NCBI GenBank assembly: GCA_964016885.1
Contig: OZ024759.1
Coordinates: 24,738,001-24,802,000, forward strand
Direction of reading: 5' to 3'
DNA from: Eledone cirrhosa
Taxonomy: Eukaryota
Length of the DNA: 64,000 bases
Shown here one piece after another: positions 4,537 through 62,824 of this stretch. The notes beneath the pieces were generated by a model, which saw only the letters and a program-made list of their open reading frames with translations, did not search any database and was not told the DNA's origin. Position numbers and translations under genes: made by a program. How positions within the stretch are numbered: the first letter of the stretch is position 1; each line of letters starts with the position of its first letter.

Positions 4537-4896
4537 TATATTAATAAAAGGAATTCCAGCTTTGTCTGATTTACTCGTTTTATTTACAATCCTTTAAAAT
4601 TATAATGGTATTATAATGAAATAGTATGGTAGAATATTAAATCTTAAGTGTTAATTGAACAAGTACTTTCATGCTTTCGCAATCTTCAGGTTCATATTCA
4701 GTGGGGAAAATTGCAAACTTGACTGCCACCACTGAATATGAACCTGAAGATTGCGAAAGCATGAAAGTACTTGTTCAATTAACATTTAACATTTAATATT
4801 CTACCATACTATTTCATTCTAATACCATTATAATTTTAAAGGATTGTAAATAAAACGAGTAAATCAGACAAAGTTGGAATTCCTTTTATTAATATA
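4537..4896. mobile_element. Foldback element, about 168-bp arms with 24-nt spacer, hammerhead in each arm
   Basis: 4537-4704 is the near-perfect reverse complement of 4729-4896; abuts (TA)n. Confidence 0.85.
4739..4777 (+). ncRNA. Minimal type I hammerhead ribozyme motif (mirror copy on - strand at 4656-4694)
   Basis: TGAAC-CTGAAGA-T-TGC(GAAA)GCA-T-GAAA-GTAC-TT-GTTCA: 5-bp stem I, GNRA-capped stem II and a self-complementary AGTACT stem III. Confidence 0.8.
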
Positions 4897-4913
4897 TATA
4901 TATATATATATAT

Positions 4914-5117
4914 ATAGGAAAAAGTATGACCCCGACGGCAGAGCTCAAGCCGTTTCGACGGCTATTTCTGGACTAAATTTAGTCCAGAAATAGCCGTCGA
5001 AGCTGCTTGAGCTCTGCCGTCGGGGTCATACTTTTTCCTATTCCCACTCTACTACCCTAAGTATTGAGTACTCTGGTGCGTTATGGTCCATCTGGTTCCT
5101 TACCACAATTCCTTTGT
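4914..5117. mobile_element. Recurrent (TA)n-targeting foldback family A; other copies at 12245-12350, 22575-22768, 31781-31949, 32642-32702, 39300-39506, 40074-40199, 62843-62933
   Basis: Shared sequence GCCGTCGAAACGGCTTGAGCTC...CCCACTCTACTACCCTAAGTATTGAGTAC...CCTTACCACATTTCCTTCGTTA. Every copy has at least one end in (TA)n, and four copies are palindromic. Confidence 0.85.
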
Positions 5118-6599
5118 TATATATATATACACGCATATTTATGTCTGTATGGGTGTGTATGTATGTGTGTATATATTTATATATAGCTATATTTGTGTGT
5201 ATATGTATCTGTATATATATATATATATATGTATATATATATGTGTGTGTGTGTGTGTGTGTGTGTGTGTGTGTGTGTGTGTGTGTGTGTGTGTGTGTGT
5301 GTGTGTGTGTGTGTGTGTGTATCTATATGTACCAAAGAGATATAAGCTCAGACAGTCCCACTGTATTTCGTTTTTTCTCTTACTGCATCTCTCTTTCTCT
5401 CACCTCTCCCTCCTCTCTCTCTGTCACCCTCTCTCTCCCTCTCCTTCTCTCTCTCTCTCTCTCTCTCCTCTACACATGTGTGTTTATATAGTATTGGATC
5501 TCCGTCGGTTCAGACACCGAGTGATCTCTTTATTCGATCAACTAGGACAGCCTATGCGGGAAATTAATGTTCAAGTTTCTGAGCATCCTTCCACAGACAC
5601 GTGTATCCTTAATTTAGTTCGCAGGGATAATAAGCATTACACAGTGTGTGACAGAGCTGACCGTTTCAATTATAGGCACAACTGAGTAGTCTCGAGCAGC
5701 GTGAGATAAAGTGTCTTGCTCAAGGACGTAACGTGGCCCGGGAATCGAACATTCGACCATACGATCGTGAACCGAACACCCCCAAACACTAGGCCATGTG
5801 CTTTCGCATACACAAACACAGACAGACAGACACACACATACACACATACACACACACAGAAAGAGAGAGAGAGAGGGACAGAGAGAGAGAGAGAGAGAGA
5901 GAGACACACACACGCACACACACACACACACACACACACACACACACACACACACACACACACACACACACAAACAAACAAACACACACACACACACACA
6001 CACACACACACACACTCACCGTTTGTTTATGTTCTGTAATCTAATGGTTGGTCACAAAGGGATCGATAAATTTCGAACCAAACAAGAAAAGTATGTTCTG
6101 GGATCGATAAGATGGTTTAAATACCATGACTGAAACTAGTAACAGAATAAAAGAATAACTCTGTGTTGTTTTGTGTGTGTGTATGTGTTTGTATGTGTGT
6201 CTTTGTGTCTTGGTGTGTGTATGTGTGTGTGTCTTGGCGTGTGTGTTTGTGTGTGTGTGTGTCTTTGTGTGTTTGTGTGTCTTGTTGTGTGTGTGTCTTT
6301 GTGTGTCTTGGCGTGTGTGTGTCTTTGTGTGTGTGTTTTTAATGGTTGAAATGACCGTTCCACCACATAATTGTAATTCTTTAAATTATGATTGAAATTG
6401 AATAATGGTCAGCTCTCTGTATCGATCTATTTGATTAGAAAGCTTAATTTTGATTTCCGGTTTGTCTAATTTCCTTTTCTACCATTCAATATTTCTCTTG
6501 CTTTCCTTTGTGTATCAATTTATCCATTTATTGCAGTCATTGATACAAACTGGGGTAAATAGATCACGACCTAAGAAAAAGAAGTAATCGATTTATATT

Positions 6600-6798
6600 G
6601 TAGTTATATGTAATTCGGCGAGAAATTGGCAGAGTCGTTAGAACGTCAGATAGAATACTTTGCAGTTGTAGTTATATGTAATTCGGCGACAAATTGGCAG
6701 AGTCGTTAGAACGTCAGATAGAATACTTTGCAGTTGTAGTTATATGTAATTCGGCGACAAATTGGCAGAGTCGTTAGAACGTCAGATAGAATACTTTG
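6600..6798 (+). repeat. 68-bp tandem triplication of a SINE head plus flank
   Basis: GTAGTTATATGTAATTCGGCGACAAATTGGCAGAGTCGTTAGAACGTCAGATAGAATACTTTG repeated three times, then continuing into the SINE body. Confidence 0.85.
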
Positions 6799-8079
6799 AG
6801 ATATTCATTCTGACTGTCTGCAGTCTGAGGTTAACTCAGGCCGAACTAAACTTTGCTTTTCATCCTTGCGATGTTGAAAAATAAAGCACCAGTGTAGTAC
6901 TACCATAGAAGCTTCCTCTATCTTGTTTTATCTCTTGTCCCCACCCCTTTTTTTTTCTTTGGAAGGTATCGGCTGTGTTCAGACCTTGAGAGGGGTAAGT
7001 TCCGCCAGGTTTAACGCTTTAGCATTTAAACCGACCGTATCAGGCCAGAATTCTCTCACCTCTTTCTGCTCAAACTGGTCATAACTGGCTGCTCATACTT
7101 ATGTTAAGGTATTGTTCTCAAAATATATAATATCAATATCTCATAGATTCAATATTATGTGAGATAAAGCCTTTAACCATGAAAATACAGTAATAAATAT
7201 AAAGTAATGTAAATGCTAAAGGGTTAAAATGCTTAAAACACGCTGTGTATCATGATAGCGCCCCTACAGGTTTATCGGGAGTTAAGAGCCTGTAGTGTGA
7301 CGCGGCGTGGCGTGGTGTGGTAATTTTGTCTGTAAATATATATACAATTCTGTATATCATTAAGACCTTGAGTTTCTCGTTCTATTGGAATATACATAAA
7401 TTATGTTAAACGGTTAAAGCAAACAATGTGTTACACGCGTCAGTGAAATTAAGATACCTTTGTATGTTTATAATCACCCTAAGATTTAATGGGTTTTTTG
7501 ACATTCATCTGAACAGAGGAATTAATCAGGATCAAAAGGTTGTTTGTTTCTTCTTTGAGTGGGACGGGGTAGGAAGTCGGGCTGTCTTTTTTTTATATAA
7601 ATGCATACGACTTCTGTAGTAAATTCATATGAAAGTCACGAAGCCATGTGGGTGGATAAGTATAGGTATGTGAACTTATCTTCTTTTGCACATTTATCTC
7701 TCCGGGTCACATATGTGGCGCTTAGAGAGAAAGTGTTCAAAATTATAGCATTCAAATATGACGTATCCACTCTTGTTGCAATAAAAACGAAACAAATTCG
7801 ATGCAGACTAACTTTATATGTACAGTCACTTGAACTGCTAAATTTAATAGCCAATTTTCCATCAAATCTTAATAGATCGTTCTAAACCTTTATATTTTTA
7901 TTCACTAATATCATGTCAAGCGTTGACGTGGCTGATTGGAACCCGTCACACGACTGCCAAGTGAGAGACATGCTATTCAGGTCCTGTATTGGTACCCCCA
8001 TAGAAAGATGATGCCGCACAATTGACAGGGACCTGAAACCCGACTTGCTATTCAGGTCCTGTATTGATACCCCCATAAA

Positions 8080-61767: not shown

Positions 61768-62001
61768 AATGGAACATTCTTGTGGGACAAACATATTCAA
61801 GGACTTATACTAGGTTCGTTCTTCTGGGGTTACCTTATGACCCAAGTATTCGGTGGTTGGCTGTCCACCAAGTTTGGTGGCAGAAGAGTCTTTGGTTACA
61901 ATATTCTAGTGGCATCTGCTGCATCACTGTTGACACCAGTTGCAGCAAATGTCCATTTTATTTTCCTCATCATTCTTCGTGTCCTCATCGGAATGACCAC
62001 A
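61768..62001 (+). CDS. SLC17-family transporter, TM2-TM4 exon; gene continues beyond the window
   Basis: ttttCAG acceptor ending 61767, GTAAGT donor at 62002, phase 0/0. Encodes NGTFLWDKHIQGLILGSFFWGYLMTQVFGGWLSTKFGGRRVFG...LLTPVAA...LRVLIG, a classic SLC17/MFS signature. Confidence 0.95.
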
Positions 62002-62327
62002 GTAAGTGACCTTCAGCTATTTATTTACTCGTTTTTTTTTTATTCTTTCATTCTTTTACTGCTCTCGGTCATTAGACTGCAGCCAAGTTGGGGCACAACC
62101 TCAAATAGATTTAAACGACCGTATCGGTTACAGTATTTATATTTTCAAGACCGGTAATACTTTTTTTATCAAACAATTTTAAAACGTTTTTACTTTTTTT
62201 TCTTGTCAAAGTTATGGAACATGAGCACGGACACAAGCGTAAACATAGATACTCACACATACATATTTATGCACACTCACACACATGCACGCGTCACATA
62301 TATATATATGTGAATCTCCATGTTAAA

Positions 62328-62419
62328 ACGTATCTGAGGAGTTTCCGATTCCAGAGTCAGGTTCGATCATTAATAGATTGTTCCTTGAGCTGATCGACAG
62401 TGAAACATATGTAATATGT
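62328..62419 (+). ncRNA. Hammerhead ribozyme motif with about 60-nt expanded stem II region
   Basis: ACGTAT-CTGAGGA-[61 nt]-GAAA-CATATG-TA-ATATGT; 6-bp stem I, palindromic ACATATGT stem III. Confidence 0.7.
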
Positions 62420-62494
62420 AATTAAATATCTATATGATGCAACACTGATTCTTTGTTCCCTTACATATTAATACTATATATATATATATATATA

Positions 62495-62824
62495 ATAATA
62501 ATACAAGGACGAATAGTTACTCCTTCGTTATGTTTATTGGTTGGTGACATGTGTTTCACTACTGATCAGCTCAAGGTTCGATCTGTATCGATCTAACCCG
62601 ACTCTGGAATCAAAAACTCGATAGATCGATACAGATCGAACCTTGAGCTGATCAGTAGCGAAACGCACATCACCAACCAATAAACGTAATGAAGGAGTAA
62701 CCATTTGTCCTTGTATTATTATATTACACTCTGTCTAGCTCTACACCTCGATACTGACGTAAAACTAAACATCGAGTGCTCACCCGGGTGAATCTACAGT
62801 AACTCCGCATTACACTCCCTGGAT
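62495..62824. mobile_element. Foldback PLE-like terminus (about 100-bp inverted arms) in (TA)n
   Basis: Arms about 62495-62595 and 62622-62722 are reverse complements. Each carries the GAAA-N6-TC 3' half of the hammerhead; homologous to 20215-20455. Confidence 0.75.

Follow-up and report, generated by a model that had tools for sequence, protein, structure and literature searches.

The 64,000-nt stretch of Eledone cirrhosa DNA analysed here (GenBank assembly GCA_964016885.1, contig OZ024759.1, positions 24,738,001–24,802,000 of the forward strand; 'the window', numbered from its first letter) holds many short islands set in microsatellite tracts, for which an earlier note, made from the letters alone, had described hammerhead ribozyme motifs. 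What these islands are, and how those with two inverted arms arose, is the question addressed. The islands are very probably 5′-truncated 3′ ends, i.e. pseudo-long terminal repeat (pseudo-LTR) stumps, of several families of Penelope-like elements (PLEs), likely of both the Neptune and the Hydra clades.

Hammerhead motifs next to TA repeats

The hammerhead motifs beside TA repeats are real. A first, strict type I descriptor (CTGANGA, helix II, GAAA, 3–10 nt, T-H, helix I) found nine sites (4689−, 4744+, 14501−, 17194−, 26029−, 26123+, 28810+, 33345− and 62334+), while dinucleotide-shuffled controls, in three sets of 200, gave means of 0.19–0.22 and a maximum of three. A second descriptor, which allowed a longer helix III and was loosened after read-depth data on 32314–33820 had been seen, found 10 sites against 0.16–0.17 in shuffles (maximum three); it gained 21817+ and 32440− and lost 28810+, the union of both amounting to 11 sites. 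The excess of strict sites over shuffles was about 45-fold, and the abundance asserted in the earlier note thus stands clear of chance. A relaxed scan with one core mismatch returned 15 sites against 3.4–3.7 in shuffles (maximum 10); by count, its five extra hits are at chance level, and 16874+, 32915− and 33013+ were retained on context while 10727− and 63525+ were discarded.

The position and the structure of the motifs point the same way. A (TA)5+ run lay 91–199 bp downstream of all 11 strict sites, against a background of 20.7% of random unmasked positions with such a run within 200 bp. For a hand-picked set of 19 motifs, decayed copies included, the run was found within 270 bp in 17 (the exceptions were 56647− and 12044−). 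Helix III was fully self-complementary in seven of the nine sites of the first descriptor, although the descriptor made no such demand. The earlier claim that pairing is kept while stem sequences differ was borne out by five aligned motifs of type B: 59 of 60 cells paired and eight of the 12 base pairs had changed on both sides, a result matched by five of 500 shuffles, for related rows of only three to four lineages and a structure set by the analyst. The other families were checked for pairing alone. For family F (see below), the differences between 62497–62720 and 20217–20451 are largely CpG to TpG/CpA changes, those of helix III included, so that the apparent variation of this helix is partly decay and not covariation. 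The Rfam hammerhead models, which the earlier note had proposed as a check, gave no such support: the search of the window returned nothing at gathering score, and no hammerhead was present among the best 150 of 404 weaker matches, which were microsatellite-driven microRNA noise.

Six of the eight main positions in the earlier note (4739, 17138, 26117, 28805, 33296 and 62328) pass the strict descriptor. At 21128 the core and helix II are intact but helix I is decayed, and the site fails both strict descriptors; at 33010 the core reads CCGAAGA instead of CTGANGA and was found only with one core mismatch allowed. Among three sites listed as partial, 21817 and 32405 turned out to be near-complete hammerheads with a 4-bp helix III, while 20368 is indeed partial. 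Motifs at 4689−, 14501−, 26029−, 32915− and 16874+ had been overlooked.

Self-alignment grouped 19 motifs at 15 loci into eight families (A, B1, B2, C, D, E, F and G), two more than the minimum of six proposed earlier, which amounts to one motif-bearing locus per ∼4 kb. Families H, X and Y have the same layout without a full hammerhead core. The label 'foldback' given to the islands fits four of the 15 motif-bearing loci, which carry two motifs on opposite strands; the other motif loci are not foldbacks of this kind, and the other foldbacks lack a full core.

Link to Penelope-like elements and probable clade assignment

Family C connects the islands to PLEs. At 28253–28914 (+), a PLE 3′ end, positions 28256–28558 encode the C-terminal part of a GIY-YIG endonuclease; its stop codon (28556–28558) lies 252 nt before the 28810 core of a hammerhead (28804–28849), which is followed by (TA)n. 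The peptide of 28256–28555 matched 337 cluster representatives (best E 1e-20). Its long homologues carry a CX2-5CxxC linker plus GIY-YIG (motif read by eye), and Pfam GIY-YIG was detected, below threshold, in three of the 15 homologues scanned; a word-indexed protein search with the endonuclease fragment gave no match. The linker is a Neptune signature (PMC8557442). Likeness to the Neptune clade extends to a C-terminal GIY-YIG with both histidines of CCHH, the insertion in a microsatellite and the hammerhead behind the open reading frame (ORF). The fragment begins after the linker, however, so that linker and reverse transcriptase (RT) are outside the window, and the assignment is tentative. 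A second copy, at 20922–21645 (−), contains a shorter endonuclease fragment (21637–21485) and the hammerhead with decayed helix I mentioned above (21126–21171).

Metagenome sequences show the same arrangement in part. Among 25 related loci, the endonuclease is followed after 124 nt by a perfect minimal hammerhead in L010 and after 112 nt by a U4-variant one in L001; L004 and L025 have a core with weak helix I. The L001 hammerhead (position 1682, core CGGACGA), behind a GIY-YIG ORF and a close relative of the canonical hammerhead of L010, is a U4G form and so a third U4 variant besides those of families E and G. In two Neptune-like loci (L003:942–1313 and L011:983–1338) a conserved 3′ region was found in common, which ends at (TA)n, contains no hammerhead and gave nothing with Rfam.

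Families A, D and G look like Hydra-clade members by hammerhead design. The published Hydra-clade design has a short, U·U-closed helix II and a helix III of 3–4 bp (PMC8557442). Compared by eye with the published table, A, D and G share the U·U-closed short helix II, D and G the 3–4-bp helix III, and D also lies within (TG)n. Hydra-clade PLEs target (TA)n, and Hydra-1_Obim of Octopus bimaculoides carries a hammerhead (Craig et al. 2021, PMC8557442); (TA)n targeting and a hammerhead near the 3′ end are common to the window families. The hammerhead listed for Hydra-1_Obim is, however, unlike theirs, so the window families are not that element. The earlier designation 'Neptune-type' applies to family C alone, via its homologues, while A, D and G resemble the Hydra clade.

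Several observations weigh against reading all islands as PLE ends. Only family C is tied to an ORF, and a tblastn search with 150 homologues matched nothing else in the window. PLE RT sequence is absent from the window, the copies being truncated before it. No coding sequence was found in families other than C, and A, D and G come without a Hydra-type protein, whose marks would be DKT and RWK motifs, a CxCX5C linker and the lack of CCHH; G apart, these families extend less than ∼170 nt upstream of the core, short of where an ORF would lie at the spacing seen in family C. The Neptune label derives from homologues of 33–53% identity and the Hydra label from the design of the RNA alone; a search of the supplement of PMC8557442 for six window motifs returned no match. 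Most of the 25 metagenome loci lack a clear hammerhead, three of these 25 have almost no downstream sequence, and Rfam found nothing relevant in the 20 loci submitted. Finally, the helix III of family C (AGAACT) is a poor predicted dimer former (+1.4 kcal/mol) and that of family E has no predicted stability (+2.2 kcal/mol). The identification as PLE termini made in the earlier note is nonetheless supported by the GIY-YIG link of family C and by features that have been described for PLEs: the anatomy of the hammerheads, insertion at (TA)n, tails on one side only and inverted arms truncated at the 5′ end. It is the connection to an ORF that is lacking for the seven other families. Direct pseudo-LTRs or partial tandems around an ORF were not seen within the window.

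The class itself is not new: PLE ends with a hammerhead, insertion at (TA)n, tails and inverted copies have all been published, an octopus element included. To this known kind, PLE ends that carry ribozymes and lie in microsatellites, the window adds new octopod families. Minimal hammerheads in metazoan PLE repeats number thousands per genome, are mostly single and have low, dimer-dependent activity; an unpaired base after A9, a palindromic helix III and opposite-strand pairs 100–700 bp apart were described (Cervera and de la Peña 2014, PMC4209133). The window motifs share the type I topology, a helix I of 3–8 bp, a helix III that is palindromic or missing and, in several families, the unpaired base after A9, as well as the occurrence of many families per genome, mostly as single motifs with some opposite-strand pairs. 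They differ in density (one motif-bearing locus per ∼4 kb of window against thousands per genome), in the helix II region of ∼60 nt in family F and in the U4 variants of E and G. In O. vulgaris, 31 recently active PLE families were reported, with no mention of ribozymes in the main text (PMC13282606). The additions made here are modest: a pairing rule for tailed and untailed arms, a tail motif, and the U4C and U4A core variants.

All three families tested (D, E and B1) are high-copy repeats. With reads and contigs on 32314–33820, their summed contig depth was ∼1e5–8e5 against 8.6 at the unique flank, though such depths are not copy numbers, which tempers their weight for the reading proposed. 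Family D was deep in a second organism too, and all three were present in a third.

Tailed and untailed arms

In families with several ends, these fall at two positions: a near one, at which a TAT or ATA of the element itself meets the repeat, and a far one, which adds a tail of 30–100 nt. All 12 two-armed insertions combined one tailed with one untailed arm, which under independent end choice has a probability of at most 0.5^12. Four are the foldbacks with two hammerheads, all tailed on the left arm: A at 4509–4891 (hammerheads 4656–4694− and 4739–4777+, helix III AGTACT, tail ∼30 nt), B2 at 25841–26213 (25984–26036− and 26116–26168+), D in (TG)n at 32314–32516 (32396–32447−, with one inserted base, and 32450–32497+, with a private G8A) and E at 32731–33161 (minimal hammerheads with a U4C core, 32884–32918− and 33010–33044+). 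The family F foldback at 62497–62824, truncated in core and helix II, is tailed on the right arm. Foldbacks X (28009–28216) and Y (25633–25777), both in (TA)n and without a hammerhead, have one-sided extensions of ∼100 and ∼90 nt. Family H supplies five: 4917–5115 (right arm tailed), 12247–12347 (an inverted arm consisting of tail only, plus an untailed arm, without overlap), 31784–31947 and, in a second subfamily, 22577–22766 and 39303–39504. In A, E, X and Y nothing but the one-sided extension defines the tail. The foldback search would have revealed symmetric pairs; a further hairpin, at 47040–47179, was omitted from the count for its lack of microsatellite flanks.

The tails of H, D, B2, F and Y have a motif in common, RCTC...GAGYRC, which by eye is also present in two published Hydra ends, Hydra-2_Amil and Hydra-2_Ajap (PMC8557442). 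The motif was defined after seeing the data: a narrow pattern gave 13 matches (10 distinct loci) against 3.8 expected, while a wide pattern was not enriched (14 matches against 13.2 in local shuffles), and its support is therefore its position in the tails of five families. Minimum free energy folding did not always form the tail hairpin. An island between TA runs at 31662–31748 (−) contains a G-C form of the motif and is possibly the tail of another PLE family. No report of the pairing rule or of the tail motif was found in the literature searched, most subscription papers being outside that search.

The arrangement recalls the Poseidon element PAc of Anolis, in which priming is internal, at two sites bounding a tail, and both target strands are extended; the protein is predicted to form a dimer, it assists the hammerhead, and the template is mainly uncleaved RNA (Frangieh et al. 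2024, PMC11167929). The window families likewise have two 3′ end positions downstream of the hammerhead, an uncleaved hammerhead in the insert and AT-rich targets. Their tails are 30–100 nt instead of 30–40, and the start sites, alike on both strands in PAc, are one of each in the two-armed insertions. Drawing on published PLE biochemistry, the PLE GIY-YIG endonuclease would nick the microsatellite, and reverse transcription would begin inside uncleaved RNA, 20–150 nt downstream of the hammerhead, at one of the two sites. It would usually stop after 60–400 nt, so that the stumps would hold little but the hammerhead. For two-armed insertions, priming of one target strand at the far site would give the tailed arm, and priming of the other at the near site, with the TAT or ATA of the element against the repeat, the untailed arm; the two cDNAs would then be joined head to head, often at an RNA hairpin.

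The pairing in 12 of 12 cases suggests coupled priming on both target strands, and an origin of the foldbacks by such twin priming is held to be slightly the better bet. PLE tails are often at one end only and inverted truncated copies occur, e.g. in Penelope-13_HM, where such a copy has a second hammerhead like the window foldbacks; the origin of inverted structures was stated as an open question (PMC8557442). The tiny two-armed insertions display both ends at once and bear on this question, and the rule is countable genome-wide and testable with the existing in vitro system. A fuller version is put forward tentatively, as somewhat short of an even chance: a dimeric PLE protein would prime both microsatellite strands, always using one far and one near end of a tail hairpin conserved from coral to octopus (RCTC...GAGYRC), with the cDNAs joined at an RNA hairpin (in H at ribozyme helix II), and octopod genomes would then hold ∼10^5 ribozyme-tipped stumps as well as intronic RNA hairpins.

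The stumps could also be PLE ends whose foldbacks formed from one cDNA only: primed at the far site, it would fold back, copy itself to a near TA-like site and be joined, with irregular centres produced by later deletions. This would account for the 12 tailed and untailed pairs, for matching subfamily bases in both arms and for centres that are close to symmetric in A, E, X and two copies of H. It requires an extra deletion at each of three loci: the untailed arm extends further 5′ than the tailed arm at 62497 (∼24 nt) and at 31784 (∼18 nt), and the locus at 12247 has a tailed arm made up of the tail alone and no overlap between its arms. A PLE protein does, moreover, extend both target strands in vitro (PMC11167929). 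These asymmetric centres may stem from later deletions and so are no proof of RNA as the template of both arms, a point against twin priming. Folding back of a single cDNA is accordingly regarded as possible, though clearly the less likely origin.

Equally doubtful is the idea that some families, H above all and perhaps G and D, are dedicated non-autonomous elements of ∼130–400 nt with fixed ends, self-transcribed and mobilised by PLE proteins. Family H occurs at eight loci of the window; the foldback centres of its two subfamilies nearly coincide, and its arms have a sharp common 5′ end (seven of 13 arms within ∼4 nt, none beyond), where random truncation predicts otherwise; this counts against truncated stumps. 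Three family G copies have one left end in common. Many reads turn into heterogeneous sequence a short way upstream of helix I, at 33357 in B1 (1472 of 2256) and at 32440 in D, although these read ends may equally reflect diverged subfamilies with only the hammerhead in common. Family C, however, continues into an ORF, and the 5′ ends of B2, F and G vary. In four of four H foldbacks, subfamily-specific bases are found in both arms, so that the foldback was remade and not inherited as a unit; propagation of ready-made foldbacks is considered improbable.

The earlier proposal of retrozyme-like derivatives fared worse. That the islands are non-LTR retrozymes, spreading via RNA circles made by their ribozymes, is very unlikely, despite their being small, non-coding, high-copy repeats with type I hammerheads and PLE kinship, as retrozymes have been reported to be PLE derivatives (bioRxiv 10.64898/2026.07.22.740005). 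Retrozymes are defined by tandem units (bioRxiv 10.64898/2026.07.22.740005; PMC7229834), whereas none of the 19 motifs lies in a tandem array (172 Tandem Repeats Finder rows), paired motifs are inverted rather than head to tail, and no unit spans the interval between two cleavage sites, the ends being 20–150 nt past the site. That the motifs match by chance in AT-rich repetitive DNA, or belong to miniature inverted-repeat transposable elements (MITEs), is hardly credible. This is refuted for the 11 strict sites, but may hold for family G and for the hammerhead reading of H. The chance-level extra hits and the silence of Rfam speak for it; the strict excess, covariation, orientation, one-sided tails and the ORF link speak against it.

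Ribozyme anatomy and genomic setting

The core CUGANGA/GAAA/UH is present at 11 sites and inexact in families E (U4C) and G (U4A). Helix III is 4–5 bp in D and G and weak in C. In other copies of family D the inserted base 32441 is absent and 32458 is G (285 of 299 first-mate-plus reads), so that the hammerhead of family D is complete, its helix I having 6 bp and its helix III 4 bp. At the two U4C positions in family E (32914 and 33014) no variant was seen among the rows listed, at depths in the hundreds, suggesting that U4C is family-wide; it is a natural hammerhead variant with lowered activity (PMC3088659). The eight or more families of the window form a natural panel in which minimal and long-helix hammerheads stand beside U4 variants.

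The ribozymes would work in tandem transcripts of intact parents. The short stem III and dimeric cleavage assumed in the earlier note do not suit D and G, which would possibly act as monomers, while A, B, C, E and F would act as dimers or with protein assistance. The two hammerheads of a foldback cannot dimerise, because one is antisense, and the foldback hairpins (predicted −27 to −291 kcal/mol) would tie up the sense copy. A single minimal copy is reported to be inactive on its own (PMC4209133). Most genomic stumps are probably silent, being single, decayed or paired with an antisense arm.

One-armed copies make up the remaining loci. Family B1 has stumps at 14397–14617 (−, hammerhead 14448–14506) and 33252–33500 (−, 33296–33350), and B2 a tailed one at 16997–17366 (−, 17136–17202). 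Tailed stumps of D are found at 21814–21945 (+, hammerhead 21814–21861 with a 4-bp helix III and helix I reduced to 3 bp) and at 56459–56559 (+, truncated within helix III). Family F is represented by 62311–62475 (+, hammerhead 62328–62419, helix II region 61 nt), by a tailed stump at 20217–20451 (−, core altered, 5′ helix I strand absent) and by a fragment at 12011–12053 (−) that retains the 5′ helix I strand, the core and the start of helix II. Family G comprises 16541–16935 (+, candidate hammerhead 16869–16919), 56575–56707 (−, core start 56647) and a shorter copy at ∼60895–60975 (−). The first contains 271 bp (16598–16868) that the second lacks, with an acceptor-like 3′ end at the 5′ strand of helix I. 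An intron with its acceptor at helix I, as in the Penelope of D. virilis, was considered; since there is no GT donor, it was ranked below an inverted tail-only arm plus variable truncation.

Family H also has one-armed copies at 32642–32699, 40075–40210 and 62845–62931. Its sequence lacks CTGANGA but has GAAA, a 5-bp stem resembling helix III, GTC and a possible strand of helix I. H may be a hammerhead in which joining took place at a long helix II, an event that would remove the core. The H motif had no matches in the genome, viral and metagenome contigs searched. Readings of H as a hepatitis delta virus-like or type III ribozyme were rejected by eye.

The window is eukaryotic, has 36% GC and is dense in microsatellites, minisatellites and repeats resembling short interspersed nuclear elements (SINEs). 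A sialin-like exon at 61769–62001 (+) is 85% identical to Octopus sinensis sialin (next matches ∼60%), which marks the host as an octopod; further sialin-like SLC17 transporter exons lie at 56076–56330 (+) and perhaps at 41309–41398 (+). The hammerhead at 62334, in sense orientation, and the foldback at 62497–62720 are both in the intron after the last sialin-like exon found. If the density of the window holds elsewhere in the genome, MITEs, SINEs or simple repeats may be the labels under which such stumps are wrongly filed, and foldbacks in introns would yield long double-stranded RNA in a lineage whose transcripts undergo heavy adenosine-to-inosine editing.

Other repeats were also noted. 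A Tc1/mariner-like remnant within (TA)n (19249–20132) has terminal inverted repeats of ∼100 bp and a transposase fragment. A long interspersed nuclear element (LINE) RVT_1 fragment lies at 38419–39120 (−), with a further LINE-like C-terminus near 60330–60500. The SINE-like repeat has more than 20 copies, some nested or inverted (e.g. 10965–11382, 16364–16541, 25157–25335, 50330–50844 and 52168–53118). The omitted hairpin at 47040–47179, near-perfect at 96% over 140 bp, is MITE-like or of unknown origin. One 41-bp minisatellite forms two arrays on opposite strands (34775–37258 and 48914–49279), and additional arrays with units of 41–78 bp are located at 11400, 23882, 26240 and 26699.

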